32,000 nt of DNA from Sinorhizobium meliloti (GTDB lineage Bacteria; Pseudomonadota; Alphaproteobacteria; Rhizobiales; Rhizobiaceae), in NCBI RefSeq assembly GCF_017876815.1, contig NZ_JAGIOS010000003.1, positions 1,320,001 through 1,352,000 on the forward strand. The letters run 5' to 3'. A program made the translations under genes and the position numbers. How positions within the stretch are numbered: the first letter of the stretch is position 1; each line of letters opens with the position of its first letter. Below, piece after piece: positions 1,740 through 31,587 of the stretch. Under the pieces are notes generated by a model that saw nothing but the letters and a program-made list of their open reading frames with translations, was not told the origin of the DNA and did no database searches.

Positions 1740-2195
1740 TGAACCCTTCAAACTGGACCGATTTTGGTTAGAGTTTTCCGGTGATTTTTCCTGGGAAAGG
1801 GACGGAAGGCGATGAAGGCATGGCAATTTCGAACGCGCAGAAAGCGTTCATTCTGAAGCAGGGTGATGAAGGGTGACGGTTGCGGAGATCTGCCGCAAGG
1901 CGGGGATCAGCCAGGCGACCTACTTCAATTGGAAAAAGAAATATGCCGGTCTGTTGCCGCCGGAGATGGAAGCTGAAGCAGCTCGAGGACGAGAATGCGA
2001 GATTGAAGAAGATCGTTGCGGACCTGACGCTGGGCCGCGAGATGCTGCAGGATGTCATTCGGCGAAAGCTTTAAGGCCTGCTCGGAAGCGGGAGGTAGCA
2101 AGGGTATGTGCCGCGATTGGACGATCTCGATCCGGCCTGCATGCGGTGCACTCGACTTTGATCGGTCGACCTACCATCACACCTCCCGTCGTGCC
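1740..2195 (+). mobile_element. IS3-family insertion sequence remnant: left end, frameshifted orfA, stub of orfB, 3' part missing
   Basis: TG-initiated putative left end (TGAACCCTTCAAACTGG) lies 80 bp before the orfA ATG at 1820. The orfA product reads MAISNAQKAFILKQGDEG / VAEICRKAGISQATYFNWKKKYAGLLPPEM / KLKQLEDENARLKKIVADLTLGREMLQDVIRRKL across three frames (HTH plus leucine zipper typical of IS3 OrfA). A short OrfB-like stub follows (ACGALDFDRSTYHHTSRR), and homology then stops where the precursor repeat begins. Confidence 0.8.
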
Positions 2196-2321
2196 GTGAT
2201 CCAAGCGACTAAGTAGGATCCCTTAGTGGTTCACGCGAATTTCTTTAAGTCCGCAAAAATGGCACTTTGCGCGCACATCAGATCCGCCGAGGATTTGATG
2301 CCAACTGATGGAGAAAGTCTA

Positions 2322-2555
2322 ATGGGTTCCATTGATGATTTTCGCAGCAAGCTGGCTACCGACAGCGCCTTTGCAGCGGCAGTGAAGGCCTGCTCCACCC
2401 CGGATGCGATCGTGAATGCTGCCAAGGACGCCGGTATCGACCTCAGCCACAATGATCTGGCCAAGGCGATCGCGGCGGGAAGCCCGAATCTGACGGATGA
2501 AGATCTGGAGTCGGTATCCTCCGGCACCATCATGGCCGCAGCGCTGGTCAAGTAA
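2322..2555 (+). CDS. RiPP precursor peptide, Nif11-like leader, copy 1 (77 aa)
   Basis: MGSIDDFRSKLATDSAFAAAVKACSTPDAIVNAAKDAGIDLSHNDLAKAIAAGSPNLTDEDLESVSSG/TIMAAALVK. It matches the Nif11-type leader pattern (M..eqLkaF..kv..D..l...lka..tpe.vv..Ak.aGf.l...dl......LsdEeLE.VaGG). GGAG lies 8 nt upstream of the ATG. An alternative ATG 24 nt upstream (MPTDGESL..) follows GAGGA. Confidence 0.85.
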   Translation: MGSIDDFRSKLATDSAFAAAVKACSTPDAIVNAAKDAGIDLSHNDLAKAIAAGSPNLTDEDLESVSSGTIMAAALVK

Positions 2556-2570
2556 TCAGTGTGACGGTTC

Positions 2571-2602
2571 GGCCAGGTGCGTGCGCCAAGCCGCACCTGG
2601 CC
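2571..2602 (+). promoter_or_regulatory. Stem-loop 15 nt after the precursor stop (11-bp perfect stem, 10-nt loop), copy 1
   Basis: ggccaggtgcg-tgcgccaagc-cgcacctggcc. No U-tract follows, so an attenuator or mRNA-stabilising/processing hairpin is more likely than a strong intrinsic terminator. Confidence 0.5.
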
Positions 2603-2864
2603 TCTCCAGATGAACACGCTTGCTCTAATATCTTGGAGCCCGAGCCCTCCTGCTCCTGAACGAGCTTGTCGGCACTTCAAGCGCATGTCGAGAACATGAT
2701 TTTGACGAAGCCGTTCAGCGGTCCCCGACCTGCTCGGCGTGATCGAAGCGCCTAAGTGGTATCCCTTAGTGGTTCACCCGAATTTCTTTAAGTCCGCAAA
2801 AGTGGCACTTTGCGCTCACATCAGATCCGCCGAGGATTTGATGCCAACTGATGGAGAAAGTCTA

Positions 2865-3098
2865 ATGGGTTCCATTGATGATTTTCGCAGCAAGCTGGCT
2901 ACCGACAGCGCCTTTGCAGCGGCGGTGAAAGCCTGCTCCACCCCGGATGCGATCGTGAATGCTGCCAAGGACGCCGGTATCGACCTCAGCCACAACGATC
3001 TGGCCAAGGCGATCGCGGCAGGAAGCCCGAATCTGACGGATGAAGATCTGGAGTCGGTATCCTCCGGCACCATCATGGCCGCAGCGCTGGTCAAGTAA
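2865..3098 (+). CDS. RiPP precursor peptide, Nif11-like leader, copy 2 (77 aa, identical peptide)
   Basis: Same peptide as copy 1. It differs from copy 1 at four third-codon positions only (gca/gcg, aag/aaa, aat/aac, gcg/gca). Confidence 0.85.
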   Translation: MGSIDDFRSKLATDSAFAAAVKACSTPDAIVNAAKDAGIDLSHNDLAKAIAAGSPNLTDEDLESVSSGTIMAAALVK

Positions 3099-3113
3099 TC
3101 AGTGTGACGGTTC

Positions 3114-3145
3114 GGCCAGGTGCGTGCGCCAAGCCGCACCTGGCC
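3114..3145 (+). promoter_or_regulatory. Post-precursor stem-loop, copy 2
   Basis: Identical hairpin sequence to 2571..2602. Confidence 0.5.
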
Positions 3146-3406
3146 TCTCCAGATGAACACGCTTGCTCTAATATCTTGGAGCCCGAGCCCTCCTGCTCGT
3201 GAACGAGCTTGTCGGCACTTCAAGCGCATGTCGAGAACATGATTTTGACGAAGCCGTTCAGTGGTCCCGACCTGCTCGGCGTGATCGAAGCGCCTAAGTG
3301 GTATCCCTTAGTGGTTCACCCGAATTTCTTTAAGTCCGCAAAAATGGCACTTTGCGCTCACATCAGATCCGCCGAGGATTTGATGCCAACTGATGGAGAA
3401 AGTCTA

Positions 3407-3640
3407 ATGGGTTCCATTGATGATTTTCGCAGCAAGCTGGCTACCGACAGCGCCTTTGCAGCGGCGGTGAAAGCCTGCTCCACCCCGGATGCGATCGTGA
3501 ATGCTGCCAAGGACGCCGGTATCGACCTCAGCCACAACGATCTGGCCAAGGCGATCGCGGCAGGAAGCCCGAATCTGACGGATGAAGATCTGGAGTCGGT
3601 ATCCTCCGGCACCATCATGGCCGCAGCGCTGGTCAAGTAA
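3407..3640 (+). CDS. RiPP precursor peptide, Nif11-like leader, copy 3 (77 aa, identical peptide)
   Basis: Coding sequence identical to copy 2, with the same GGAG Shine-Dalgarno. Confidence 0.85.
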   Translation: MGSIDDFRSKLATDSAFAAAVKACSTPDAIVNAAKDAGIDLSHNDLAKAIAAGSPNLTDEDLESVSSGTIMAAALVK

Positions 3641-3655
3641 TCAGTGTGACGGTTC

Positions 3656-3687
3656 GGCCAGGTGCGTGCGCCAAGCCGCACCTGGCC
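3656..3687 (+). promoter_or_regulatory. Post-precursor stem-loop, copy 3, 24 nt before the first YcaO gene
   Basis: Identical hairpin sequence. It lies between the last precursor and the enzyme genes. Confidence 0.5.
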
Positions 3688-3710
3688 TCTCCAGATGAAG
3701 GGGCACCGAC

Positions 3711-4901
3711 GTGACCACTCCCGCCATCGGCACTAGAAATCGCAGGCAAGAATCAAGAATAATGACAGCATGTAACAGTTTGGGAACTTCGATTCGCAAT
3801 GTATCCGCAAGTCATACGCTTGCCGCGATCCAGCCACTTCTCGGACGTTACGACATCAGCGGATTTGCCGATCATTCGCCAAAGGGTGCAGAAACTCTGA
3901 AGTTTATAGAGGTCGTGCGCGGCAATCCGCGTTCGGGACATCTTAATCTCGGGAAAGGCTTTAGCTTCGAGACGGCACTTGCCTCGGGATACATGGAAGC
4001 CATCGAGATGAGTACGGTTGAAGGTCCGCCCGAGATCGCGTTGCATGCGCTTCCTCGATCCGCGCTTCTTTATACCGGGGGCGGAAAGCCGCCGGAGCCG
4101 GATGCGGCGCCCATGATCCGTGGCGTTGACCTGTTGTCGGCAGAGCCGGTTTACAGCCCTGTCTATGAACATTTCCTGTCGCCTGCCCCCTCGGCGCGGT
4201 CTGTTTCCGTCAACGGCTTGGCCAGCGGAAACACGGTCGAGGAAGCCAGTTTACATTGTCTCTATGAACTGATCGAACGCGACTTGACTGCCCAATCCCT
4301 CCGCGACCCGGTGCTGGTGCAGCAGCTTCTCCTCAGCGACATTCCAGCGCCCATTTCCAACGCCCTGACGGAACTGGAAGCGTTCGGACTACACGCCGAA
4401 TTCTATCTTCTGGGGCAGTTCCTCGGCGTCACTGTGCTTCAATGTGCGCTTGTAAAAACCGGATCCGGTGGCGAGGTCTATTATGGCTGGGGCGCTCATC
4501 ACTTCCGAGCCATTGCCATTTCTCGTGCCATGACAGAAGCCGTGCAGGCCTGGTGTACGCGCGAGGCATGCAGAGCGCAGACGCTTCCTCTTTCGCGCAT
4601 GCCTGGCGGGGTCATGGTCTCTGCCGAGGTTCTGAAGCTTTTGAGGGAACCTGTTACGAAGGGCGAACGTCAGTTGCGGCGGCGCTTCATCGCCTGCCCG
4701 AGCGTTGCCTATTCGCTCACCGATCAGGATGAGCAGGCACCGGCATCGCCAACGGCTGCCCTGAACCACCTTCTCTCGTCGGCGCGGGACGCCGGCATCC
4801 GTCATGTCTTTGCCTGGACGCTATCCCCGCCAGACCGTCCATTTGCCGTCGTCAAATGTGCCGTCCCCGGATTCGAAACTCCATTTGAGGTGGACGCGTG
4901 A
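3711..4901 (+). CDS. ycaO: YcaO-domain protein 1 (396 aa)
   Basis: YcaO signatures GKGFSFETALASGYMEAIEMSTVE and NGLASGNTVEEASLHCLYELIERD. GTG start is preceded by GAAGGGG (alternative ATG at 3762). Its stop overlaps the TfuA start. Confidence 0.85.
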   Translation: MTTPAIGTRNRRQESRIMTACNSLGTSIRNVSASHTLAAIQPLLGRYDISGFADHSPKGAETLKFIEVVRGNPRSGHLNLGKGFSFETALASGYMEAIEMSTVEGPPEIALHALPRSALLYTGGGKPPEPDAAPMIRGVDLLSAEPVYSPVYEHFLSPAPSARSVSVNGLASGNTVEEASLHCLYELIERDLTAQSLRDPVLVQQLLLSDIPAPISNALTELEAFGLHAEFYLLGQFLGVTVLQCALVKTGSGGEVYYGWGAHHFRAIAISRAMTEAVQAWCTREACRAQTLPLSRMPGGVMVSAEVLKLLREPVTKGERQLRRRFIACPSVAYSLTDQDEQAPASPTAALNHLLSSARDAGIRHVFAWTLSPPDRPFAVVKCAVPGFETPFEVDA

Positions 4902-6271
4902 TGGTTGTCGAGACCAACAATGAGATTGCCGTTTTTCTGGGCCCGTCCTGCTCGATTGAAGAAGCTAAAAGCATCCTGCCGGAGGCAGATTACTTTCCGC
5001 CCGCGGCTCGTGGCTCCATCTACGGTATTATCAATGATGGATACCGGATGATCGTCCTTCTCGACGGTCTGTTCTACGGACAATATTCTGTTTGGCATAA
5101 GGAACTCCTGTTCGCCCTGGATTGCGGCATTGAAGTAATCGGCGCAACGAGCATGGGTGCCCTGCGGGCGGCCGAACTGGACTGCGAGGGCGTGACCGGT
5201 GTCGGGCAGATCTACCAGTGGTTTCGTGACGGCGAAATCGATGGCGATGACGAAGTGGCTCTGCTCCACCAGAGTTCCGAGGGAGCTTACGCGCCTCTTT
5301 CCATCCCTCTCGCCAATTTGCGTTGGAATCTGCGCCTTGCCCGAAGAGAATGTATGATCGACGAGCAGCAGGAAGCGCGGATTCTGGACCATGCAAAGGC
5401 CCTGTGTTTCCAGGACCGAATGATGGAGGTCGTGCTTTCGCCGCTGGCAAAGGAACTGGATGTTTCTGGCTTGCAAAAATGGCTTGAAACGCATGGAGAG
5501 GATCTAAAAAAAAGGGATTGCTTAGAAGCGTTGCACTTTGCCGCCAGCCGGATCGCGACCCTTGGCCCCGCGCAGCCTCCCCGTCTTCGCGCCTATGAGA
5601 CGGTGCATACGCTGATCGGCATCGAGTATTTCAAGCACGAGCGGTTGAATGCCATCTGCGCAAAACGGCAAGGCAAGGCCATGCCGCTCTCGCAGTACAC
5701 CGAGCGAGTTGCCGTGGGAGATCCCTCCTATCGTAGCTATCTGCGCGCTCGCGCTTGCCAGCGCCTTATCAATGGCTGGGCTCGGGAACTTCACCTCGAA
5801 ATCACCCCGGCGCCCATTCTGCCCCAATGGTTACCCAATCGGTTTGACCTCGCTCACCGCAGGGCAACCGGCCTGACGCTAATCGACATTGCACGTGAGG
5901 GACGGGAAGCCGCCTTCACCGCAGGCGTCATCGGATCTCTCTCATCACCCGGCAGCCGCAGCCTCGTCTCCGATATTGACCGGCAACTGGCAGAGGCAGG
6001 TTTCTCGGCATGGGGCGCGGGAGCCGAAATCACACATTTGGATGGCCGCCTTGTTTATACGCTTCGTCGCCTGGGGCGCGAAAAGGGCATTTTGCCGGAC
6101 GAGAATGAAGATGCAGATACCGCCGAAGCGGCGCTCCACTACCTTGAATGGGTCTATCGCACCGGCTTGCAGCACTTCGGCTACACATTTGACGCGGCAA
6201 CCGAAATCCTCCTGGCACACCAATTTGCCGATCGACTTGACGACATTCTCGGATTGAGGGCTGCATCATGA
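4898..6271 (+). CDS. tfuA: TfuA-like protein with about 240-aa C-terminal extension (457 aa)
   Basis: The N-terminal 200 aa carry the TfuA pattern: IAVFLGPSCS..A..ILP.A.YFPPAARGSIY..., LLDGLFYGQYSVWHKELLFALDCGIEVIGATSMGALRAAEL, GVGQIYQWFRDGEIDGDDEVAL. GTG 4898 / ATG 4901 overlap the YcaO1 stop (4899-4901). ATGA overlap with YcaO2 at 6268-6271. Confidence 0.85.
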   Translation: MMVVETNNEIAVFLGPSCSIEEAKSILPEADYFPPAARGSIYGIINDGYRMIVLLDGLFYGQYSVWHKELLFALDCGIEVIGATSMGALRAAELDCEGVTGVGQIYQWFRDGEIDGDDEVALLHQSSEGAYAPLSIPLANLRWNLRLARRECMIDEQQEARILDHAKALCFQDRMMEVVLSPLAKELDVSGLQKWLETHGEDLKKRDCLEALHFAASRIATLGPAQPPRLRAYETVHTLIGIEYFKHERLNAICAKRQGKAMPLSQYTERVAVGDPSYRSYLRARACQRLINGWARELHLEITPAPILPQWLPNRFDLAHRRATGLTLIDIAREGREAAFTAGVIGSLSSPGSRSLVSDIDRQLAEAGFSAWGAGAEITHLDGRLVYTLRRLGREKGILPDENEDADTAEAALHYLEWVYRTGLQHFGYTFDAATEILLAHQFADRLDDILGLRAAS

Positions 6272-7485
6272 ATGCTGTTGAGGAATACTCACAAGGAACC
6301 CAGCGCACCTATAATCCGGAAGAGACATTGCGGAGAATTGCGCCAGCGATGCGCACCTGCGGCATCAGCCGCGTTCTCGACGTCACCCATCTCGATCGAA
6401 TCGGCATCCCCACCTACAATGCCGTGCGCCCCAATGGAATGATCTTGTCCGTGTCCAATGGGAAAGGGTGGACGAAGGCCGCCGCATCCGTATCCGCAAT
6501 CATGGAGTCGATCGAGGTCGAGCACGCCGAATATCCGGATACCTCGGCCTGGCATCTGGCTCAAAGCGCGAAGGTACTGCGAAACCGGGGATATTCGGTC
6601 GTCGATGCGCCAACGCTCATCAGCGAGTGCCTCTGGCCCTCCGATACCTATGGCGGTCTCTACTACTCAGATGATCTTCGCCTCGATTGGGTCGAGGGAC
6701 GCGAGATCATCGAGTCTCGGCCAGTCCTGCTGCCGGCCAGCACCATCTATGTACGCGCGCCTTACGTGCATTATTTCACCAGCAATGGATTGGCGAGCGG
6801 CAACACCTGGGAAGAAGCAACGCTTCACGGCATCTGCGAGTTGATCGAACGCGATTCCACGGCGCGTCTCCTCGGTCGTCCCGAGGGCATGACCACATCA
6901 CGGTTGCTTCGGATCGAGCCAAAATCGATGCCTGAACATCTCGGGCACTTCTCGGAGAAAGTGGCGCAGGCCGGAATAGAGCTTTTCATGTTCGCTCTTC
7001 CGAGTGCCATCGATATCCATACATTCTGGGCTGTGTTCCATTGCCCGGGCGAGCCCAGTTTCATGCTGGCCACCTCGGCGGGCTTCGGGTGCCATACATC
7101 GCCGCAGATCGCCGCGTCTCGCGCCCTGACCGAAGCTGCCCAGTCGCGCCTGACCTATATTCACGGGGCGCGGGAGGATCTGGGGATAGACCACGTCAAT
7201 CGTCAACTGACCTGCGCGGAGACAGAAGCGCGATTGGCCTTGCAGGCGCGGACATTTGCCAAGTTTCGGCAGATCCCGACCGTCACCTGGGATGAACTTC
7301 TGGCCGTGGCGCCACATCGTGCCCGCGGGCGTACGATCCCGGAAAGCCTCTCCATGGTGCTGAGAATGTTGAAGGAGGCCGGACACGGTCAGGTCTATGT
7401 CCACGATCTGACGAAGCGCGGTCTAGACCTGGCCGTGACGAAGGCCTTCGTGCCGGGGCTCAAGGTCAGCGCGAAGATGATTTGA
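6268..7485 (+). CDS. ycaO: YcaO-domain protein 2 (405 aa)
   Basis: Canonical YcaO N-terminus (GISRVLDVTHLDRIGIPTYNAVRPNG..SVSNGKGWTKAAASVSAIMESIEVEHAE) and NGLASGNTWEEATLHGICELIERD. No Pro-rich azoline-type C-terminal tail. Confidence 0.9.
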   Translation: MNAVEEYSQGTQRTYNPEETLRRIAPAMRTCGISRVLDVTHLDRIGIPTYNAVRPNGMILSVSNGKGWTKAAASVSAIMESIEVEHAEYPDTSAWHLAQSAKVLRNRGYSVVDAPTLISECLWPSDTYGGLYYSDDLRLDWVEGREIIESRPVLLPASTIYVRAPYVHYFTSNGLASGNTWEEATLHGICELIERDSTARLLGRPEGMTTSRLLRIEPKSMPEHLGHFSEKVAQAGIELFMFALPSAIDIHTFWAVFHCPGEPSFMLATSAGFGCHTSPQIAASRALTEAAQSRLTYIHGAREDLGIDHVNRQLTCAETEARLALQARTFAKFRQIPTVTWDELLAVAPHRARGRTIPESLSMVLRMLKEAGHGQVYVHDLTKRGLDLAVTKAFVPGLKVSAKMI

Positions 7486-7529
7486 CTCTAGTGAAATGAC
7501 GATAATCGCGCGCCGCAACAGGCTGCGCA

Positions 7530-8507
7530 ATGGAGACGACCCGCATGACCCTGGAGACAGCATCGCCCGTGCAACCGAATAGCCATCCCGGCACGCCCTT
7601 TGGTGAGATGTGGCGCGTAGCGGAACAGAACCCAGCTTATTCCCTTCTGGAAGTGCTCGATTCCATTGATCGAGACGTGTGGGACATGGAAATGCCGAGC
7701 GCCGATCAACGCGGCGTCTACGCCCGGGTGAACGGTCAGGCGGCTCTGCACCGGTTGCGGGAGGCGATGAACGGCATGGAGGCGGAGTATCCGCTCGATG
7801 CCCCGCCGCGACGCCGCCAATGGCTCGCCTCGGGTTGCTTCATGCGTGTCGAGGCGGTGCTTGATGCCTCACAGGTCCGTGAACTGGCGGGGCACTGCGA
7901 CCATCTGCTGCATACGCCCGGAATGCGCCCTGTCCGCCTGTTTGAAAACCCGCATATTCTCTCGGAAGAAGCCATAGTCGCCATAGCCCGAACTGCGCTT
8001 GCGGCTCTCCCACAGGCTTTGCCGTGCTCGGCGAGACCTGCTCTTCTGAAGAGACGAACGCTCTTGCGCCGGACTTTCCCACGGGCACAGCTTCCCGATG
8101 CGCACGGCAACGCCAATAATCAGTTTTGGCATCAGGACAGCAATCAGAAGTTCAACGATGCACCCATGATCACGCTTTGGATTCCGCTGGAGGATGGCGT
8201 TGGAAGAACCTGCCCCGGTATGGAAGTTATCGATGCGCCGGTTTCCTACTTCTCCATTTTGCATGGGGATAGTTCCCAAACCATCTGCCCAATTCTGTGC
8301 GACATGTTTCCCGGCACCCAAATTACGTCGCTGGAAGCAGCTGCTGGAGATTGCGTCATGTTCAACGGCCTTACATTCCACCAGACCGCGACAAATCCTG
8401 AGATGCGGCAGCATCGGGATGCGCTTTTGATCCGCATCATCGAGGCGGCAGATGCGGCCCATTTTGGTCCTGATGGGGCAGCTGATGGGATCGTTCCACT
8501 TGTCTAG
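7530..8507 (+). CDS. PhyH-family Fe(II)/2-oxoglutarate dioxygenase-like protein (325 aa)
   Basis: FWHQDS (HxD facial-triad motif typical of phytanoyl-CoA dioxygenase relatives) and distal LTFHQTA. An alternative ATG at 7545 has GGAG 9 nt upstream. Confidence 0.65.
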   Translation: METTRMTLETASPVQPNSHPGTPFGEMWRVAEQNPAYSLLEVLDSIDRDVWDMEMPSADQRGVYARVNGQAALHRLREAMNGMEAEYPLDAPPRRRQWLASGCFMRVEAVLDASQVRELAGHCDHLLHTPGMRPVRLFENPHILSEEAIVAIARTALAALPQALPCSARPALLKRRTLLRRTFPRAQLPDAHGNANNQFWHQDSNQKFNDAPMITLWIPLEDGVGRTCPGMEVIDAPVSYFSILHGDSSQTICPILCDMFPGTQITSLEAAAGDCVMFNGLTFHQTATNPEMRQHRDALLIRIIEAADAAHFGPDGAADGIVPLV

Positions 8508-9363
8508 CCTCGCCGTCCGCATCATAGGCGCCGGTGCAGTGGGAATGGCGTGCGGCTACCTGCTGCAACGGCGCGGGCATAAGCCACTGCATGTCAGTAT
8601 GCGTGGAGCGCCCTTGCGTGAACTGCCAGTTGCCATGCAAGGCACGGCACGCGGTCGATACCGCCCCGAAGCTGCGACACATGCTTCCCCGACGGATATA
8701 ACGCTCTTTGCTGTCGGGCCGCACGAAGTGGCCGGTGCATTGGCAACATGGGGTCAACCTGATGGGCGAAACCTTGTGTTCTGCGCTCATCCAGAACCGC
8801 AAGAAGGCGCCGTCATGGTCTTTCCGCAGATTTCGGCAGAGATTTGCCCAATGCGCGGACTTGGCATTGTGACGAGCGGCGCTGTGGAGATCTGCAACAA
8901 GTCGCAGCCTCATGCCCCTGGCCTTCTGCTGAAATTGGGCTTCAGGCTGGTACGCATGGTGACGCGGGCTCATTTTGCAGGTCGCGCCCTGCAAACGGCG
9001 GCATCTTATGTTGTGCTTCTCGCCCTCTCCCGTGGTGAGATGACCCGCGATCAGGTCTCACAGGTCTTGCTGATCGACATCATGCGGTTGCTGATGGAGG
9101 CCATGAGAGGGGCCGAAATTGCGGTCCAACTGCCGGATGGCTGTTCCCGCGCCTTCGCTGAACTGGCTTTACACATCTGCGCGCCCACTTCCGCCGAAAA
9201 TGATGTTCTCTCGCAAAACCTGGAAGCGCTGATGGCAACACCACAGCGCAAATTGCGCGGCCACCTTGCCCTCTACGAAGCGCCATGGCGGCGGCATGGT
9301 CCGGCCTCCGACGGGCTTGCGGCACGCCTGATCGATTTCGCGACATCTAAGCCCGTCCTCTAA
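8485..9363 (+). CDS. NAD(P)-binding Rossmann-fold oxidoreductase, possibly ketopantoate-reductase-like (about 292 aa)
   Basis: N-terminal VRIIGAGAVGMACGYLLQRRGH (GxGxxG) right after the start. The ORF opens at 8452 and overlaps the dioxygenase stop. ATGs at 8473/8485 or TTG near 8499 are possible starts. Family assignment beyond the dinucleotide fold is weak. Confidence 0.55.
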   Translation: MGSFHLSSLAVRIIGAGAVGMACGYLLQRRGHKPLHVSMRGAPLRELPVAMQGTARGRYRPEAATHASPTDITLFAVGPHEVAGALATWGQPDGRNLVFCAHPEPQEGAVMVFPQISAEICPMRGLGIVTSGAVEICNKSQPHAPGLLLKLGFRLVRMVTRAHFAGRALQTAASYVVLLALSRGEMTRDQVSQVLLIDIMRLLMEAMRGAEIAVQLPDGCSRAFAELALHICAPTSAENDVLSQNLEALMATPQRKLRGHLALYEAPWRRHGPASDGLAARLIDFATSKPVL

Positions 9364-9400
9364 TGAACTGTCCTCGCCCATGCGCAAGAAAGGAAATTCC

Positions 9401-9679
9401 ATGCAACAACTGACAGTGATCGTCCCACCCTCGATCCGGCCCTATGTCGGGGGTCAATCGCGCATCACAGTTGAGGCCCAAACCGTGCGCGAGGCGCTGG
9501 GCGCCATGTCCGCCAAATCCGCGCAATTGAAGGAGCATTTGTTCGACACGAAAGGCGAGATCAATCGCTTTGTTCGGATTTTTGTCAACGGACGGCCCGT
9601 GCCGCTCGGATCGCGCGGCGATGAAGCCGTCGAAAACGGCGCGGAGATAGCGGTCGTGTTGGCGCTGGCTGGAGGTTGA
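9401..9679 (+). CDS. ThiS/MoaD-family ubiquitin-like sulfur carrier protein (92 aa, C-terminal Gly-Gly)
   Basis: MQQLTVIVPPSIRPYVGG...VNGRPV....EAVENGAEIAVVLALAGG-stop. Size, beta-grasp-like pattern and terminal GG fit the family. AAGGAA lies 6 nt upstream of ATG 9401. Confidence 0.8.
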   Translation: MQQLTVIVPPSIRPYVGGQSRITVEAQTVREALGAMSAKSAQLKEHLFDTKGEINRFVRIFVNGRPVPLGSRGDEAVENGAEIAVVLALAGG

Positions 9680-9683
9680 GGGC

Positions 9684-10826
9684 ATGCTCAGGCAGGAACG
9701 TCTATCACGTCTACGGGAATCCTTGTCTCGGATCAGTGTCGAGGAGGCAAGACGGAAGCAAAAGGCTGGCGTCAAACTGATCGATATTCGTGACGCCGAA
9801 GAAACCGCCAAAGGCAGCCCTGTCGGCGCGGTACGCATCAGCCGATCCTTTCTGGAATTGCAGATTGAAAACGTGGCGCCGGATGCCGATACCGAGCTTA
9901 TGGTACTCTGCGCCAGCGATGCGCGCGCGCTGTTTGCCGCAGACGATCTCAACCGCCTCGGCTATTCTTCCGTTCATTGGGTCGATGGCGGATTTCAAGC
10001 CTGGGAGGCAGCCGGTCTTCCCGTTGAAAAACACCGACAGCTGAGCGCAGCGGAGAAGGAGCGATACGCGCGCCATTTGAGCATACCCGAAGTGGGGGCT
10101 GAGGGTCAGGCGCTGCTTCTGTCCAAGAAGGTGGCTCTGGTCGGTGCTGGAGGCCTTGGCTCTCCGCTGGCCTTTTATCTTGCGGCAGCAGGCATTGGAA
10201 CATTGGGGCTGATTGACAGCGACCGGCTCGAACGGTCGAATCTTCAGCGGCAAATCCTCCATACCGACGACCGGATCGGGGAGTTGAAGGTCAGTTCGGC
10301 CGCAAAATCTCTTCAGGCGTTCAATCCGGACGTAGCTCTCAATCTCCATGAGATACGGTTGAACGAGAACAATGCACTGGAAATACTGGCCGATTACGAT
10401 CTGGTGATCGACGGCAGCGACAATCTGGCGACCCGCTACGTCGTGAGCGACGCCAGCACGCTGCTTAATATTCCCATGATTTATGGCGCGATCTTCCGTT
10501 TCGAGGGACACGTTTCCGCATTTTGGCCCAATGGCCCGTCCGGTGGCCCGTGCTATCGCTGTCTCTTTCCTGAAAAGCTGCCCGCATCGCTCACTCCATC
10601 CTGCTCCGAGGTCGGTGTGCTTGGCGTGTTACCGGGCGTCATCGGGACGATCATGGCAACGGAAGCGATCAAGATCCTGCTCGGAATCGGCGATCCGCTG
10701 ATTGGGCGTTTGCTGACCTACAATGCCCTCGATTGCTCTTTCCACGACCTCGAGGTCCCCGCGAACCCCCATTGCGAGCAGTGCCAATCCAACCGGGATC
10801 TGCCACGCATGCGCGCCGGGTTGTGA
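9684..10826 (+). CDS. Rhodanese-ThiF/MoeB fusion (E1-like adenylyltransferase/sulfurtransferase, 380 aa)
   Basis: Residues about 1-115 form a rhodanese domain with an active-site loop Cys (MVLCASDARALFAADDLNRLGYSSVHWVDGGFQAWEAAG). The rest is canonical MoeB/ThiF: RYARHLSIPEVGAEGQ, VGAGGLGSPLAFYLAAAGIG, DSDRLERSNLQRQILH, DGSDNLATRY, CYRC...CEQC zinc motifs. GGAGG lies 9 nt upstream. Confidence 0.9.
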   Translation: MLRQERLSRLRESLSRISVEEARRKQKAGVKLIDIRDAEETAKGSPVGAVRISRSFLELQIENVAPDADTELMVLCASDARALFAADDLNRLGYSSVHWVDGGFQAWEAAGLPVEKHRQLSAAEKERYARHLSIPEVGAEGQALLLSKKVALVGAGGLGSPLAFYLAAAGIGTLGLIDSDRLERSNLQRQILHTDDRIGELKVSSAAKSLQAFNPDVALNLHEIRLNENNALEILADYDLVIDGSDNLATRYVVSDASTLLNIPMIYGAIFRFEGHVSAFWPNGPSGGPCYRCLFPEKLPASLTPSCSEVGVLGVLPGVIGTIMATEAIKILLGIGDPLIGRLLTYNALDCSFHDLEVPANPHCEQCQSNRDLPRMRAGL

Positions 10827-10846
10827 GCGTGGGCGGCCCTCTTACG

Positions 10847-11467
10847 ATGCTGCAAGCCTTCCGGTTTGGTGAAAGCGACCGGGACCATGTGTCCCGATTG
10901 CTGCATTGGGCGGACTTTCCCAACAGTGCACGTATTGTGGACCTCGGCGCTGGCAGCGGCGGGGTCGCGGCCCATATGGCGGCTTTGCGTCCGGATTTAC
11001 GTTTCTGTCTGGTCGATCTGGATGAAACGAAACTGGCGGCCAGTTCATTCGAAAAACACATTGCAAATATAACGCAAGTCCCAGAACCCGATGGTGCATT
11101 CGACGCGGCGATTTGCTGTTACGCAATGGGTTATGCGCCTTCGGATGCGCTATGGTCGGAGATTTCACGCCTTCTGCGACCGGGTGGCACTGTTTTTATC
11201 GTGGATATGGTGCCCAAGGATGCCACGATCCCGAAGCTTAGCCTGTTCGGCTATGAGATACGGAGCCGTGGGATGGTCGAGGAAGCGGCGCAATCTGTTG
11301 GTTTGATACCGGATGTCTATATCGAGCCGTATGATTCCGGCGATTGGGGCCGGTCCGTCTTTTCGGATGCTTTCGATGTATTCTTCGGCGATCTGCGGCC
11401 CGCCATCTGGTGCTGGCGCGCGCCCGAAACCAAGACCGTCGCTCACCCCTCGACCACCCAAGCGTGA
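10847..11467 (+). CDS. Class I SAM-dependent methyltransferase (about 206 aa)
   Basis: Motif I IVDLGAGSGGVAAHMA, post-I LVDLDE, motif II FDAAICCYAMGY, motif III LLRPGGTVFIVD. An alternative GTG at 10823 forms a GTGA overlap with the E1 stop. Confidence 0.8.
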   Translation: MLQAFRFGESDRDHVSRLLHWADFPNSARIVDLGAGSGGVAAHMAALRPDLRFCLVDLDETKLAASSFEKHIANITQVPEPDGAFDAAICCYAMGYAPSDALWSEISRLLRPGGTVFIVDMVPKDATIPKLSLFGYEIRSRGMVEEAAQSVGLIPDVYIEPYDSGDWGRSVFSDAFDVFFGDLRPAIWCWRAPETKTVAHPSTTQA

Positions 11468-12128: not shown

Positions 12129-12317
12129 TCAGATTATGGGGGTGGATGTGCGTTTAAGGGTCACAGTGCCGGCCACGACTAGAACGACTTCGATGGCGAC
12201 AGTCGCAATTACGGTGGTGCCGTTCGATTGATTTTGGCCGGAGATCTCCCCTTCAACAAATGCGTCCGAGCGTGCTGTGCAATTGTTGGCGTCATCGATC
12301 GTGAAAATGGTAGCCAC
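12129..12317 (-). CDS. Candidate small ORF (62 aa) downstream of the LanM-like gene
   Basis: GTG start 2-3 nt after AGGAAG. Product MATIFTIDDANNCTARSDAFVEGEISGQNQSNGTTVIATVAIEVVLVVAGTVTLKRTSTPII. Moderate GC3 bias. An AT-rich stretch lies upstream. Not recognisable, and may be a gene fragment. Confidence 0.25.
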   Translation of the reverse strand: MATIFTIDDANNCTARSDAFVEGEISGQNQSNGTTVIATVAIEVVLVVAGTVTLKRTSTPII

Positions 12318-12468: not shown

Positions 12469-15390
12469 TCAATGGCCTATGGTCGGAAGAAGACCAGCAG
12501 AGATGATAAGGTCGCGAGCCGCGTTGGACCGCTCGTCCCGGATCTGTGCGAACCCTATACCAGCAACGCCAGTGAACAGACCGAGATGGCGTGGATCGCA
12601 GTACTTCTGGGTGTCTGAAGAGCATGGCAAATTGCCAGTTGCCTGTGCTGATGACGCGCAGGCCATCTCGACGCCGGCGGTGCCGCTGTGGATACCGGCT
12701 CCTTGGTTAGGCAGGGACGCCAATCCGATCACCCCGCGCCGGATTGCAGCATCCGCATTCGCTCGCCATTCTTGGTCATGACGCAGGCACAGGCATGTGA
12801 TGATGTGACCTGCAATGCCGCAACTCCATTCAGAACCGGCGCGAGGGCCGAAGCGCCAGAAGGCTTCCGAGCTGTGTTGAAGCAGGGATTGAACCGAAGC
12901 GCGAATGTTTGCGTTCCCTGATACATGCGCAAACTGACTGAGCGCAGCCAATACACCAAAAGCACCTTGCGCAAAGCCAGACGGTGCCGTTTCCGCCTCT
13001 CTGCTGGTCCAGTCGGCCAGACGGCAGGCAACCATCTCGGCCTGAGTGTCCGCTGTGTCGGAATTCACGAGTAGGAGCGGACCCAGCAAGCCCGCATATC
13101 CGGACCAGACATCCCAAGGCTTATCTTCGAGCAAGGCCCGATCGAGAACTGCAACCAACTGCTGCATGGCGTGCGGGATTCGATCGGCCATTATGCTAAG
13201 CCTCTGCAGTGCCGACAATGCCAGAAGCTGTCCGCCGCTGCCACGCAACCCGATGGGCAGGTCTCGCCACCACCGCAGGCGCTCAGCCGGTGTTCCGCTC
13301 TCCGCCAGCCTCAGAAGCGGCTCAGCCAAATTTTCTGCAATATGGCAGGCCTCTGGTCTTCCGGTCGCTGCAAGATAGACGGCAAGACCAAGTGTGCCGC
13401 TCACGAGCGACATTCCAAGCGGCTGGTAGCAGAACCGGATACCATCCGGCGCGAGATCGAATCCGATCCAGCCATCTGATCGACGCCTGATTTCCGATAA
13501 AAGCTGGTCTGTCGGATTGGTGATCGGTTGGAGGCTGTTCTCGCAACTCCGCCCGTGCTGCGCGAGCCGCAATGCCTTGGCCGATGCCAAAGCGTCTATT
13601 GTTTCGATCTCACGCTCGATCCTTTCGCAGGACAATGCCTCTATTCGCTCCCGGCTTGCCGCCAAGCCACTCGTCTCGAAATAGTCATCGATTCGTTGAT
13701 CGCCGGTCAGGTTCAGGGCCGTTTGCGAGACCGTGTGCGTGAATACGGGAATATCCAGTTGGCGCATTTGCAGCTTTTCAGAGGCGCATAGGCTTGAAAC
13801 GTCCTGACGATCTGCAAGCGGCGCAAAAAGGCGCTCCAGCGGATAAAGAACGTCTGCTTGGGACTGCTCGCTTCGCAATGCTTCCGCCGTCAACTGACGG
13901 CGTGCAAGCGCCGCATAGATCCGTGTCGCGCGAATGACAGCGCGCCCCTTGCAGCCGTTGAAGGCCTGCAACAGGCCATCTTCCCCCAGCCAAACGGGTT
14001 TGTTGGCGATGATGGACCTGCACTGCGCATGGAATCCGGCCATGAAGAGCTTACGATGACGGAAAAATGGATTCTTCCTGTCTGACGTTACGGGCAATGA
14101 TTGCGTGCGAACGAGCTCCCCGATCATGACGGTGCGGGCCATGTTATCCGTATTGATGGAGTGCCAGCCGGGAATTTGCCTTGGCCATTCCTGAGGCTCG
14201 ATGCCGAAAGCGCTCGTATCGACGGCATCGCGTGCGAGGCCCAGTAAGGTCCAGGCTGGAAATAGCTCGGTTCGTGCAACGGTGGTGTCGAACCAAGACC
14301 ATGCCGTCTGGGCCGCACCCAGGCTGTCCCCCGGCCGTGGACGGCGAATTGCTGGCTTCTCGAAGGGCGTCAAAAGCGTTTCGGCGTCTATAACATATAG
14401 ATGGCTGTGATGCGCCACGAGGTTTTCGTGGTGACCATCCGTGTAACCTAAAACATGCAGGAGAGCGGCCAGTCTGCCGGCACTGCGATAGAATGCCTGC
14501 AGTACATCTTCGTTGTCGCAGGGCGCGCCCTCAACAAATTCCATATAGCCATAGTCTTCTGCGCACCAGATTTTCAGCCCGGGAAGAGGTGAAAGACCGA
14601 TGCTAGCGCGCGGATCCGCCAGCAAATTCTGGAACGCCGCCTCGAGGGCGAGGTTACGGGGCTTGTAGACGAGTTTTGTCTGCCGCCCCTGCCAAGTGAA
14701 TTCCAGCAGCACGACGCTCCGTCCACCCTTATGGGTATCGCCGACAGCAAATTGCATGCCGGAAAGCGCCGCGTCTTCAGGAAGGCGGAAGTTTTGAGCG
14801 ATTGCTGTCCGATCCGCCTCGAGGCGGGCTAAAAGCTCGCGAAGATTTCTGATCCAGACTGCAATTGTGAAAGGAATCAAGCGTCGAAGGACCGGAAAGC
14901 GATCCAGCAGTTCCGCCAGATGTGTCTGCCGCAGTTCGTCTGTCAAGCGATCATAGATCTCGCATTTCGCGGCGCTCGGGTCTTTCTCCGGGGCTAATGC
15001 GGCGATGACGGACGCGCCAGCGCCACGCCGCTCTTCAAGTATTTGCTGAAGTGCATCTGCCCCCAACGCGCAAAGGCGCTCTGTCAGCGCTACAATCAGT
15101 TGCCCGATGACGGTTGGCGCCAACGCGGCTTGCGGCAGAAGCCCCATTGCGACTTCGGCCAGAGGAAACCACAGGTGAACAAAAGGCAGCTCTTTCGCAA
15201 GGCAAGGCGTTCGCGAAATGTCTTGCCTCGCCGCGAAGCATAAACCCGAGAGAAACGCATCTCCGGAACCGGCTTTCTCACGAGGCGCGCCTGTATTGCC
15301 CACCGGATCGGCAAGCTCGTCCACCAATGGCCAAAGGGCTACTATCGCCGTATTGTCTCGTGCCTCTTTTCGGATGTTTGCGTCGATCAT
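12469..15390 (-). CDS. lanM: LanM-like class II lanthipeptide synthetase (973 aa) with degenerate LanC-type cyclase motifs
   Basis: Dehydratase (DUF4135-type) signatures GDTHKGGRSVVLLEFTWQGRQTKLVYKPRNL and YGYMEFV...FYRSAGRLAALLHVLGYTDGHHENLVAHHSHLYVIDAETLL. The C-terminal repeats are LanC-like, but GFAQGAFG replaces G-x-A-H-G, EWSCGIAG replaces W-C-x-G, and GIHSGTAG (12673-12696) replaces C-H-G. Start moved to ATG 15390 (GGGAGG 9 nt upstream) rather than the track's 15441. Confidence 0.85.
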   Translation of the reverse strand: MIDANIRKEARDNTAIVALWPLVDELADPVGNTGAPREKAGSGDAFLSGLCFAARQDISRTPCLAKELPFVHLWFPLAEVAMGLLPQAALAPTVIGQLIVALTERLCALGADALQQILEERRGAGASVIAALAPEKDPSAAKCEIYDRLTDELRQTHLAELLDRFPVLRRLIPFTIAVWIRNLRELLARLEADRTAIAQNFRLPEDAALSGMQFAVGDTHKGGRSVVLLEFTWQGRQTKLVYKPRNLALEAAFQNLLADPRASIGLSPLPGLKIWCAEDYGYMEFVEGAPCDNEDVLQAFYRSAGRLAALLHVLGYTDGHHENLVAHHSHLYVIDAETLLTPFEKPAIRRPRPGDSLGAAQTAWSWFDTTVARTELFPAWTLLGLARDAVDTSAFGIEPQEWPRQIPGWHSINTDNMARTVMIGELVRTQSLPVTSDRKNPFFRHRKLFMAGFHAQCRSIIANKPVWLGEDGLLQAFNGCKGRAVIRATRIYAALARRQLTAEALRSEQSQADVLYPLERLFAPLADRQDVSSLCASEKLQMRQLDIPVFTHTVSQTALNLTGDQRIDDYFETSGLAASRERIEALSCERIEREIETIDALASAKALRLAQHGRSCENSLQPITNPTDQLLSEIRRRSDGWIGFDLAPDGIRFCYQPLGMSLVSGTLGLAVYLAATGRPEACHIAENLAEPLLRLAESGTPAERLRWWRDLPIGLRGSGGQLLALSALQRLSIMADRIPHAMQQLVAVLDRALLEDKPWDVWSGYAGLLGPLLLVNSDTADTQAEMVACRLADWTSREAETAPSGFAQGAFGVLAALSQFAHVSGNANIRASVQSLLQHSSEAFWRFGPRAGSEWSCGIAGHIITCLCLRHDQEWRANADAAIRRGVIGLASLPNQGAGIHSGTAGVEMACASSAQATGNLPCSSDTQKYCDPRHLGLFTGVAGIGFAQIRDERSNAARDLIISAGLLPTIGH

Positions 15391-15455
15391 GGCGATGCCT
15401 CCCGCACAAATCTCCCTTTCGACCCGGCAACATTTCCGCATTGACAGCTATGGAT

Positions 15456-15473
15456 ATTGCAACATGGTGCAAT
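15456..15473. promoter_or_regulatory. Palindrome ATTGCA-N6-TGCAAT in the divergent lanM-like/protease intergenic region
   Basis: Perfect 6-bp arms, 10 bp downstream of a TTGACA hexamer (15441-15446). Candidate operator, but short enough to occur by chance. Confidence 0.2.
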
Positions 15474-15494
15474 CTGAGGAATGTGGAGACATAT

Positions 15495-28790: not shown

Positions 28791-29019
28791 GACAATAAAA
28801 CAGGAGAATATTTTTAAATATATTTTTCGTACGTTTCCGGATCTTGACGATATATAGAAGACGTATTGTCGCACTATCAAATAACAGAATATTTTCTTAA
28901 ATACATCTCTGCTCCTCTTGCCTTAAACAAGTACTACTAGTAGAGCTTCGTCTTACGTCATTCGCTGCCCAGCGCATGCCGGTCCCGCCCTTCCATCGCT
29001 TAGAGAGTGAAGTGCCACC

Positions 29020-30222: not shown

Positions 30223-30316
30223 TGCGCGGACGCCGCCGCGCATCGCGATCTTTTCCGCAATTTGCCGGGGCGCCTGGCGCGCACCGCCCGGATCAGCCAG
30301 CCAAGAGGTAATCAAG

Positions 30317-31050: not shown

Positions 31051-31587
31051 CGGGCCCGCAACAATTCGGGCCAATCCTATCGGTTACGGGGCCTTCATGG
31101 ACCCCCATTTTGCCGTCGTAAACCGTTACCGCGTTTACCTAAAGTGACATTGGTAGCGCGGGCGAGGACTGCGTCCCTCTGCTTTTCTGCTTCAGTCAGC
31201 ATAGCTACAAAGGCTGTCGCCTTCAGGGGGCGAACGGGAGCCGGGAGCTTCTGAAGAATTTTCGAATCTTCTGGCTAGCGGATTTTGCATCCGAAAGCAT
31301 TGTAAGCACCGACTCGGCGCAATCAGTAGTTTTACAGGGGTGTGCGAGACACCGCTTTGCGCTATATAGTTTGCGAGGCTGAAACGTAATGCACCTGTAA
31401 CCATCGGATGACCCTCTGGTTCTGATGGGTAACTTCTCATTGGTGAGAAGATTGGATCGGACAACTTCCTTCTATAAACATACGGAGATGAAGTGATCTT
31501 CAGACCTCAAGCTGAGGGCCTGTGTGTGTATCACTAACGTCATAGACAATACCCGCTGTCTCGCTCTTGCTCGTTTGGGAGGTTTGA

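Follow-up and report, generated by a model that had tools for sequence, protein, structure and literature searches.

An array of three precursor genes was found on pSymA of Sinorhizobium meliloti RU11/001, within the 32,000-nucleotide stretch analyzed here (the window; Table 1). The array is composed of head-to-tail units with start-to-start spacings of 543 and 542 nt. It was delimited by a direct-repeat search and direct alignment; Tandem Repeats Finder gave no array match in the window because its period limit is 500 nt and the unit is longer. An earlier note on this DNA had described three units, each with a Shine-Dalgarno sequence, a 77-aa ORF and a perfect 11-bp hairpin. The repeats, translations and hairpins were all recovered, and in every copy a spacing of 8 nt separates the Shine-Dalgarno sequence (GGAGAAAG) from the ATG. 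Three coding sequences and three hairpins are present, but the array amounts to only 2.77 full units, as the 5' side of unit 1 is cut by an IS3-family remnant and unit 3 stops at a junction with ycaO that is the same in single-copy Rhizobium. The IS3 assignment is based on ORF translations read as orfA and orfB and on a neighbouring "IS3 family transposase" annotation, and in S. medicae ml29 the first copy is preceded by the same remnant junction. Whether the sequence 5' of unit 1 might be another, diverged fixT fragment was also considered, but it reads as the start of IS3 orfB and the idea was rejected.

Table 1. Features of the precursor array and the surrounding gene cluster, with positions in the window.
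Feature	Position	Strand	Remarks
IS3-family remnant	1873..2194	+	orfA-like ORF and orfB start; left array border, truncates unit 1
Repeat unit 1	2195..2737	+	543 nt: promoter-like region, precursor copy 1, hairpin 1, fixT' fragment leading into unit 2
Repeat unit 2	2738..3279	+	542 nt
Repeat unit 3	3280..3699	+	420 nt; stops past the hairpin at the native ycaO junction
fixK-promoter-like core 1	2210..2279	+	TAAGTAGGATCCCTTA ... CGAATTT ... CACATC, 70 nt
fixK-promoter-like core 2	2753..2822	+	TAAGTGGTATCCCTTA ... CCGAATTT ... CACATC
fixK-promoter-like core 3	3295..3364	+	FixJ-box motif and 70-nt spacing
Precursor copy 1	2322..2555	+	77 aa, Nif11-type leader (residues 1-68) and core TIMAAALVK
Precursor copy 2	2865..3098	+	peptide identical to copy 1
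Precursor copy 3	3407..3640	+	CDS identical to copy 2
Stem-loop 1	2571..2602	+	11-bp perfect stem, 10-nt loop, no U-tract
Stem-loop 2	3114..3145	+	11-bp perfect stem, 10-nt loop
Stem-loop 3	3656..3687	+	74 nt before the probable ycaO start at 3762
fixT' pseudogene fragment 1	2615..2759	+	3' ~45% of a fixT-like receiver gene ("...LSALQAHVENMILTKPFSGP...")
fixT' pseudogene fragment 2	3158..3301	+	frame intact; stop TAG changed to TGG
Modification operon	3711..11467	+	same gene order in S. medicae, Rhizobium and the metagenome relative
YcaO	3711/3762-4901	+	probable start 3762 inferred from annotation
TfuA fusion	4898-6271	+	
Second YcaO	6268-7485	+	
PhyH-like oxygenase	7530-8507	+	
NAD-binding-like protein	8452-9363	+	
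ThiS-like protein	9380-9679	+	
ThiF/MoeB-rhodanese	9684-10826	+	
Class I methyltransferase	10733-11467	+	
LanM-type enzyme	12469-15441	-	divergent from the C1 peptidase
Papain-family C1 peptidase	about 15114-16682	+	divergent from LanM

Comparison of the coding sequences confirmed that all copies specify the same peptide. Copy 1 departs from copies 2 and 3 at CDS positions 60, 66, 132 and 156, and all four changes are synonymous third-position transitions. Outside the CDS, the 127 nt preceding the ATG contain seven differences between copies 1 and 2 and the 59 nt past the stop codon contain none, and copies 2 and 3 show one upstream difference and three substitutions in all. Copy 1 is set apart from the others at 11 positions. 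The flanking substitutions reported before are therefore real, but the 1-nt indel reported with them is a length difference of a C4 homopolymer at 2722-2725, which frameshifts fixT' fragment 1 in the window. Neither the RefSeq record of RU11/001 nor any other strain has the indel, which is therefore probably a sequencing or assembly error.

The precursor matches TIGR03798 with 69.7 bits (cut-off 32.3; E=1.8e-19), its residues 3-68 covering positions 5-68 of the 68-position profile, and Pfam Nif11 with 26.6 bits against a cut-off of 23.8. The leader ends in ...LTDEDLESVSSG, or in STG in Rhizobium, so that Ser-Gly or Thr-Gly is present rather than Gly-Gly, and a C1 peptidase takes the place of a C39 transporter in the cluster. 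The precursor family is small, as a homology search with the precursor matched only six clusters. In literature searches on the core sequence, on YcaO with pSymA and on Nif11/TfuA in rhizobia, no publication describing this cluster was met; those on Nif11/TfuA gave genome-mining surveys and reviews only.

The core of nine residues, T(I/V)MAAALVK, does not vary within Sinorhizobium and Rhizobium, and only I70V distinguishes the metagenome relative. The 43 intact Sinorhizobium copies fall into 13 alleles and five peptides; TIMAAALVK is unchanged in every one of them (43/43), and the peptides differ in the leader only (residue 2 G/C/S, A19V, N56D). Purifying selection, which had been proposed for the array, was borne out at three levels. 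In the window alone, the probability that four of four changes are synonymous is 0.004-0.015; among the pooled Sinorhizobium copies, 11 variable sites are synonymous and 3 are non-synonymous (P=4e-5); and codons 67-77 of a 68%-identical relative carry eight synonymous codon changes and one non-synonymous change. The peptide, and above all its core, is thus held constant by purifying selection. The five peptide variants might suggest that copies are kept since different leaders are processed differently. We regard this as very improbable, because the three peptides in the window are identical and the variants are few, conservative and away from the cleavage motif.

The flanks of the copies had been taken as plain non-coding DNA. 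Blastn, alignment and motif scanning revealed instead a 3' fragment of fixT followed by a fixK-type promoter. The spacer shows 75-89% identity to annotated fixT or "transcriptional regulator" genes, as found by blastn and followed by alignment and translation, and in the alignment the precursor ATG falls at the place of the fixK ATG. With FixJ site and motif definitions from PMC4999443, a TAAGTAATTTCCCTTA-like FixJ site and CSNAATWT were found at conserved spacing, the combination that marks fixK-promoter homology; unit 1 has one mismatch to CSNAATWT (GCGAATTT). The composite FixJ-box motif occurs three times in the window, once before each copy, with none expected, and is also present at real fixK promoters; it was not found in the Rhizobium or metagenome relative loci. 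The 70-nt spacing of the promoter cores is exactly that of real fixT-fixK loci, and 52-53 of 70 positions are identical to them (75%), compared with 64/70 among true fixK promoters themselves. The FixJ box of the units differs by one or two changes from TAAGTAGT(T/A)TCCCTTA. With the core diverged and the box changed in this way, FixJ dependence of the promoter copies may have been lost. Since each flank combines a fixT' fragment and a fixK-type promoter with a FixJ box, each precursor copy is probably its own transcription unit. A sigma-54 promoter (TGGCAC-N5-TTGC) was also considered. It was rejected because the region aligns to the fixK promoter; moreover, where the window has TGGCAC most S. 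medicae units have TGACAC, so the GG is not conserved, and GCGC is found at the -12 element.

Perfect 11-bp inverted repeats occur three times in the window, with none expected by chance, and the stem-loops they form are stable (z = -2.7 to -3.8). The stem is kept in Rhizobium with one G.U pair and recurs in the 68%-identical relative, where three pairs carry compensatory changes. A hairpin after every copy had been proposed as part of the cassette. This holds for the window, and the stem-loop is always present behind the last copy in the loci surveyed, but about half of the S. medicae units lack it, so a hairpin per copy is not a required feature. In the short S. medicae units the promoter core is kept while both the hairpin and the fixT' fragment are gone. 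A dispersed REP-like palindrome was rejected, as only the three cassette copies were found in the window even with three mismatches allowed, and a scan of the whole window at Rfam gathering thresholds returned no known RNA family.

The hairpins could be full terminators, making the cassettes monocistronic and placing a promoter of the enzyme operon between 3688 and 3761. A stable G+C-rich stem directly behind each stop codon, at a position conserved across three lineages, would suit such a role. However, the tail past the stem reads UCUCCAGAUGAA with no U-tract, and the terminator scan gave no terminator-like match, which excludes a canonical intrinsic terminator. Short S. medicae units also lack a hairpin between consecutive copies. 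Nor is there a FixJ box within the 74 nt before ycaO, and the lone sigma-70-like match there (3734-3763) straddles the probable ycaO start and is no excess over shuffled sequence (mean 0.8). Full termination is therefore considered unlikely. The modification operon, having no recognisable promoter, is probably transcribed by read-through from the array, and we infer that the hairpin could act by attenuation, leaving more precursor mRNA than enzyme mRNA.

Stop and start codons overlap in the YcaO-TfuA-YcaO series, and the precursor lies directly 5' of YcaO/TfuA in four lineages. Adjoining YcaO and TfuA genes beside a precursor, the hallmark of a YcaO-TfuA RiPP cluster, are thus present. The LanM and C1 peptidase pair is part of the cluster in the relatives: at locus L012 LanM immediately precedes the single precursor and is divergent from the C1 peptidase, and in Rhizobium LanM is found behind the methyltransferase. 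The zinc ligands of LanM are not conserved.

The comparison of copy number across related strains, which the earlier note had proposed, covered 13 loci in complete genomes and gave a range of one to eight. One copy was found in Rhizobium and one in the metagenome relative, two in S. meliloti SM11, three in RU11/001 and in S. kummerowiae, and five to eight in S. medicae, where the number varies between closely related strains. Every Sinorhizobium genome examined keeps at least two intact copies. Each S. medicae genome has between one and three frameshifted copies, the first copy always among them. In S. kummerowiae, which has the same three copies as RU11/001 and the same four copy-1 variants, an IS lies within the copy-2 promoter and splits the array. 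Copy 1 is the same in RU11/001 and S. kummerowiae; in SM11 it is a mosaic. The range of copy number, the mosaic and the frameshifted copies show that the units expand, contract and swap patches by homologous recombination.

The doubt whether the triplication is an assembly artefact, so that the true RU11/001 locus has another copy number, was also addressed by this comparison. Copies 2 and 3 differ by so few substitutions outside the CDS that mis-assembly of the repeat is conceivable, and the window disagrees with the RU11/001 RefSeq record in two homopolymers, which indicates that its sequence is not error-free. However, that record also contains three copies, copy 1 is recognisable at its distinguishing positions, and 11 independent complete plasmid records carry two to eight copies. 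The S. kummerowiae assembly, with its matching copies and copy-1 variants, is unambiguous because the IS breaks the repeat. An artefact thus appears highly unlikely.

The previously suggested dosage amplification of a single product stood in part: a single core is encoded by all intact Sinorhizobium copies, but adaptive dosage is only a possibility, since frameshifted copies and varying copy number fit neutral unequal crossing-over equally well. Under neutral drift, a single copy would do: unequal recombination between 540-nt direct repeats, in a region of pSymA that is plastic and rich in IS elements, would alone account for the array, and the extra copies would be tolerated passengers of no dosage benefit. 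Copy number could drift in this way because not every copy is maintained, as seen from the frameshifts and from the IS-split promoter of S. kummerowiae. The differences among S. medicae strains close in kinship agree with drift, and a single copy suffices in Rhizobium and the metagenome relative. Intact copies are, on the other hand, under strong purifying selection even inside arrays, and two or more are retained throughout the Sinorhizobium genomes, though neither observation proves a dosage benefit. Drift is a possible explanation, but we consider it the less probable one.

The gene cluster resembles those of the thioamitides (thioviridamide, thioholgamide, thiostreptamide S4), and its product is a putative thioamide-type RiPP. 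The parallels extend over the core (SVMAAAATVAFHC) and the gene set, which includes YcaO with TfuA, an Fe/2OG oxygenase (PF05721), a class I methyltransferase (PF13649) and a C1A cysteine protease. The core opens with (S/T)(V/I)MAAA as in thioamitides, and dehydration of Ser/Thr1 is expected to give an N-terminal 2-oxoacyl group. In contrast to thioamitide clusters, the S. meliloti cluster has a Nif11 leader, a second YcaO, dedicated ThiS and ThiF-rhodanese genes, and LanM in place of the phosphotransferase/lyase pair. Its core has no Cys or His and a decarboxylase is absent from the cluster genes. The predicted product would accordingly have no AviMeCys macrocycle, because both Cys and the decarboxylase are missing, and for the same two features the cluster was not assigned to the thioamitides. 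Thioamitides are actinobacterial, whereas the S. meliloti cluster is proteobacterial. It would partly work like a thioamitide cluster, yet it is no member.

Prochlorosin-type systems likewise possess a Nif11-type leader (TIGR03798), LanM in the cluster and several precursor genes. They differ in having many different cores and often dispersed precursor genes, whereas the present array has one invariant core without Cys and a LanM without conserved zinc ligands; the contrast with prochlorosin-type diversification drawn in the earlier note is upheld. A closer parallel in gene arrangement is the thiocillin cluster of Bacillus cereus ATCC 14579, where tclE-H are four identical tandem precursor genes (PMC5100339). 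In both cases contiguous genes for one RiPP precursor are placed before or within one set of modification enzymes, and the array fits the definition of multi-copy identical RiPP precursors given in that paper. Unlike thiocillin, each S. meliloti copy carries a captured fixK-type promoter and a 3' stem-loop, the copy number is polymorphic among strains (1-8), and a Nif11 leader is combined with YcaO/TfuA on an alphaproteobacterial symbiosis plasmid. TfuA-related clusters with Nif11-like precursors have been reported with Rhizobium among the genera (Malit et al. 2021, PMC8120280), and the figure of these clusters includes MoeB among the additional genes, as here. The passages of that survey consulted here do not describe tandem identical precursors, a fixK-type promoter or a thioamitide-like core.

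Duplications of the fixK promoter are known in S. meliloti before SMc03253, proB2 and SMc06992 (Ferrieres et al. 2004, as cited in PMC3738161 and PMC3164228), with two tandem promoter copies at SMc06992 (PMC3738161). The array shares with these duplications a fixK promoter copy before an unrelated gene, with the spacing between FixJ box and -33 motif kept. It differs from them in that the copied segment takes in the 3' part of fixT and not the beginning of fixK, and in that the promoter is more diverged (75% identity), is co-amplified with the gene and is only putatively controlled by FixJ. Both tandem identical precursor genes, as in tclE-H, and fixK promoter duplication thus have precedents, and tandem copies in themselves are unsurprising, since other clusters are known to carry identical precursor genes in several copies.

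Based on these results, we propose, with a probability of roughly 0.7, that the array arose by genuine tandem amplification of an entire small expression cassette with a captured promoter, and that it feeds a thioamide-type RiPP operon. The cassette would consist of a promoter region that originated in a fixT-fixK locus and was captured with its fixT 3' pseudogene fragment, FixJ box and -33 motif, then a 5'UTR of about 45 nt with the Shine-Dalgarno sequence, the 77-codon Nif11-leader precursor gene and a stable stem-loop without a U-tract. Several copies of promoter and CDS could yield more precursor mRNA and peptide relative to the enzymes, and the stem-loop might shield or partly end precursor transcripts. 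The promoter copies may answer to FixJ, that is, to oxygen limitation or to conditions in the nodule. The product would be a short linear polythioamide that resembles thioamitides in their N-terminal half, and a cyclase-dead LanM would dehydrate its Thr1. A more specific scenario, offered only tentatively, is that a thioamitide-like polythioamide entered the FixLJ regulon through capture of the fixT-fixK promoter and that its unit was amplified up to eight-fold, providing bulk product in nodules or microoxic niches for symbiosis or strain competition.

For RiPP biology, the array offers a clean natural case of a nine-residue core kept constant by selection while, from strain to strain, its gene is copied, converted and lost. 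The cluster suggests that the cytotoxic thioamitides have an uncharacterised relative in proteobacteria, with sulfur-relay genes of its own. For rhizobia, the fixK-type promoter in the amplified unit leads to the testable idea of a symbiosis-plasmid peptide induced by low oxygen, and the array extends a habit of S. meliloti, in which genes are recruited into the FixJ regulon via promoter duplication.

The precursor genes form a genuine recombining tandem array of the complete cassette. A repeat search returned a direct repeat at 2195-3699, with start-to-start distances of 543 and 542 nt. Each ATG is preceded at 8 nt by the Shine-Dalgarno site GGAGAAAG, and translation of the three CDSs gives one and the same peptide; repeat, translation and inverted-repeat analyses agree on the three cassettes, each with a perfect 11-bp hairpin, described in the earlier note. 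As also claimed there, the CDSs of copies 2 and 3 are identical, and copy 1 is distinguished at CDS positions 60, 66, 132 and 156, all third-position synonymous transitions. Copies 1 and 2 show 4 differences within the 234-nt CDS and 7 within the 127 nt that precede the ATG; the 59 nt past the stop are identical. A single upstream substitution separates copies 2 and 3. Unit 1 is truncated on its left side by an IS3 remnant, with a junction common to S. medicae, and unit 3 terminates at the native ycaO junction, so that the repeat unit of fixT' fragment, promoter, Shine-Dalgarno site, CDS and hairpin is present in 2.77 copies. Because it is limited to periods of up to 500, Tandem Repeats Finder did not detect the array.

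Features of the window and of related loci
Feature	Position	Remark
Precursor CDS 1	2322-2555	77-aa peptide
Precursor CDS 2	2865-3098	77-aa peptide
Precursor CDS 3	3407-3640	77-aa peptide
Core codons 69-77	3611-3637; metagenome contig L012, 10205-10231	T(I/V)MAAALVK
Perfect 11-bp inverted repeats	2571-2602, 3114-3145, 3656-3687	10-nt loop; 15 nt past each stop codon
TfuA fusion protein	4898-6271	C-terminal fusion partner of ~240 aa, family unknown; total length 457 aa here and 455 aa in L012; two separate annotated ORFs in S. medicae ml29 and Rhizobium TP37
LanM-type enzyme	12469-15441; L012, 6941-9862	minus strand in the window
IS4/IS5-type transposase	28125-28790	adjoins cytochrome P450 gene
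High-G+C stretch	29001-31000	G+C 66% vs about 57% elsewhere
Cytochrome P450 gene	29020-30222	inside high-G+C stretch
Dispersed repeat, probably an IS	31079-31708	94% identity to L001 1-631, same plasmid, about 10 kb upstream of window

The two inter-copy spacers are 2 substitutions and one extra C apart. This C (C4 versus C3) lies at 2722-2725, and every other strain has C3. Over 19.5 kb, the window differs from the RefSeq record of the same strain (NZ_CP021217.1) at only two places, the second being A4 versus A3 at 12304-12307. Since both discrepancies are +1 in homopolymer length in the window and the other strains all have C3, the extra C is most likely a sequencing error rather than biology, and residual homopolymer errors in this sequence version are suggested. 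The flank substitutions noted earlier hold, then, and the accompanying 1-nt indel probably does not.

The window is a section of plasmid pSymA from S. meliloti RU11/001, at about 100% identity. Precursor copies were counted in 13 loci, comprising complete plasmids and one metagenome contig. Three copies were found in S. meliloti RU11/001 and in both S. kummerowiae records, and two in S. meliloti SM11, all intact. Seven S. medicae strains possess 5, 5, 6, 6, 7, 7 and 8 copies (3-6 intact), and one intact copy each is present in Rhizobium (TP37; ten further records each have a single match to the unit) and in the metagenome relative with a 68% identical precursor. The comparison across strains asked for by the earlier note thus gives 1 to 8 copies, with a multi-copy state in all Sinorhizobium loci counted. 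In S. medicae (L002, L013-L018), long 542-nt and short 383-nt units alternate, and Cys2-type and Ser2-type leaders form a higher-order pattern; copy 1 is frameshifted in 7/7 strains, and some carry additional frameshifted copies. The four copy-1 variants of RU11/001 exactly equal those of S. kummerowiae copy 1. In S. kummerowiae CIP 108026 (L004 3620-4555; likewise L006), a ~935-bp IS5-like element, whose DDE transposase ORF is on the minus strand, sits within the copy-2 FixJ box, at CCCTTAG, and interrupts the copy-2 promoter; as it splits the array, the assembly there is unambiguous. The multi-copy state is thus real and old, and the number shifts among close relatives. The exact count of three in RU11/001 is that of the assembled sequence and is unverifiable without reads; a mis-assembly of this count is highly improbable. 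Copy 1 of SM11 combines copy-1 with copy-2 states as a mosaic, a sign of gene conversion, and shifting copy number would be the outcome expected of unequal homologous recombination between 540-nt repeats. That the number drifts neutrally, with no consequence for dosage, is somewhat unlikely.

Strong purifying selection acts on the peptide, in line with the earlier reading of a single selected product. In the window alone, four random changes would all be synonymous with a probability of 0.004, or of 0.015 if only transitions are considered. The 43 intact Sinorhizobium copies pooled represent 13 alleles and 5 peptides, with 11 of the variable sites synonymous and 3 non-synonymous (P=4e-5 for an expectation of 25%, 1e-3 for one of 35%). 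The three amino-acid changes, G/C/S2, A19V and N56D, are all in the leader; diversification of the leader as the reason for the array is nonetheless very hard to credit. Because codons 67-77 of the metagenome relative differ by eight synonymous changes and a single conservative replacement (I70V), against 24 replacements in its leader, the C-terminal T(I/V)MAAALVK is, as judged from sequence, under very strong constraint.

The flanks had been taken for plain non-coding DNA; they are instead a fixT 3' fragment and a fixT-fixK intergenic region. The 285 nt from hairpin to next ATG match annotated fixT or 'transcriptional regulator' genes on many Sinorhizobium plasmids with 75-89% identity (blastn). 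The alignment covers the 3'-terminal ~45% of a fixT-like receiver gene ('...LSALQAHVENMILTKPFSGPDLLGVIEA...') and then the intergenic region, the precursor ATG occupying the position of the fixK ATG; the upstream part of the cassette is homologous to fixT-fixK. A FixJ site TAAGTAATTTCCCTTA, a SELEX consensus GTAGTTTCCC and a CSNAATWT motif at -33 have been reported (PMC4999443). Each of the three copies has the composite pattern TAAGT-N5-CCCTTA-N10-SNAATWT upstream exactly once, against an expectation of 0. Nearly all copies in the other Sinorhizobium arrays are likewise preceded by it; it also occurs at the real fixT-stop/fixK-promoter junction of three control loci, and was not found in the single-copy Rhizobium and metagenome loci. 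The units and the true fixK promoters have an element of exactly 70 nt from TAAG to CACATC; 52-53/70 positions are identical between them versus 64/70 among the true promoters, and the similarity ends near the expected transcription start. By sequence comparison, the fixT'-promoter piece is an insertion in the Sinorhizobium lineage, since homology to Rhizobium is restricted to the Shine-Dalgarno site, CDS and hairpin and resumes from ycaO on. The nearest fixT-like gene (89% identity) is located on accessory plasmid pMl3 of S. meliloti ml21 (L008 2812-3300), not on pSymA, and the true pSymA fixT has only ~76% identity; the donor was probably, for this reason, a paralogous fixT-fixK pair. S. meliloti recruits genes via fixK promoter duplication, and one gene has two tandem promoter copies upstream (PMC3738161). 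The odds that the diverged copies would still respond to FixJ are roughly even.

The hairpins are stable: their 70-73-nt contexts have a folding energy of -34 kcal/mol, and the z-scores lie between -2.7 and -3.8. The hairpins have no U-tract and a terminator scan gave no match, which rules out a canonical terminator; a palindrome search ruled out a dispersed palindrome, and no Rfam family matched. Rhizobium retains the hairpin with one C-G to U.G change, and the metagenome relative has a hairpin of different sequence at this position; in three of its pairs both bases differ. About half of the S. medicae units are of the 383-nt short form, where a 160-nt deletion took the 3' arm and the fixT' fragment and spared the promoter core; these do not fold. 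The final copy before ycaO always keeps its hairpin. We read this conserved hairpin as an RNA 3' element, a stabiliser, processing barrier or weak attenuator between precursor and enzyme genes, which may set the ratio of precursor to enzyme mRNA. No recognisable promoter was found within the 74 nt from hairpin 3 to the probable ycaO start; full termination combined with a separate enzyme promoter is unlikely. Each cassette would fire its own promoter and transcripts would read through into the enzyme operon, a greater copy number would give more precursor mRNA per enzyme mRNA, and expression would respond to FixJ and low oxygen.

Downstream are encoded YcaO, a TfuA fusion protein, a second YcaO, a PhyH-family oxygenase, a weak NAD-binding match, and ThiS-like, ThiF/MoeB-rhodanese and class I methyltransferase proteins. 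LanM and a papain-family C1 peptidase are found nearby and are cluster members in relatives; the single precursor of the metagenome contig has LanM directly upstream. The LanC-like domain of LanM lacks the conserved zinc ligands and catalytic His, read at what we take to be the LanC/LanM motif positions (AQG / WSCG / IHSG here; AMG / WAYG / LFSG in the metagenome relative). The missing ligands suggest a putative dehydratase-only LanM, a role that fits a core without Cys: the TIGR03798 match ends the leader at residue 68 and thus leaves the nine residues TIMAAALVK. Sulfur would be supplied by ThiS and ThiF; ThiS thiocarboxylate is reportedly used by TfuA, as Liu et al. are said to have found in 2021.

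In its N-terminal part, the thioviridamide core SVMAAAATVAFHC (PMC10125368) is similar to T(I/V)MAAALVK. Thioamitide clusters contain YcaO and TfuA, a PF05721 oxygenase, a PF13649 methyltransferase and a C1A protease, and the N-terminal pyruvyl group arises from dehydrated Ser1, an S1T mutant giving 2-oxobutyryl (bioRxiv 10.1101/2020.12.17.423248). The PF05721 oxygenase, class I methyltransferase and C1A protease are common to these clusters and ours. Strictly speaking, the product falls outside the thioamitides, as it cannot form the Avi(Me)Cys macrocycle that defines them. From the likeness of core and gene set, and from the S1T result, our best guess would be a short, linear, methylated and hydroxylated polythioamide whose N-terminal group is 2-oxobutyryl.

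Nif11-type precursors and LanM were reported in S. medicae WSM419 (Haft et al. 2010), and a genome-mining study lists TfuA clusters with Nif11-like precursors for Rhizobium (PMC8120280). Neither the product nor the array nor its promoter was described in any paper that our literature search found. Identical tandem RiPP precursor genes are already known, as in the thiocillin cluster with its four identical copies tclE-H (PMC5100339), and so is fixK promoter duplication. What is new is the combination: promoter and precursor as the amplified unit, a promoter captured from the symbiosis plasmid's oxygen-response circuit, a copy number that varies from 1 to 8 between strains, and a cluster that is an uncharacterised thioamitide-like system. 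With the promoter capture, a connection of this peptide natural product to the nodule oxygen regulon can be put to a sharp test.
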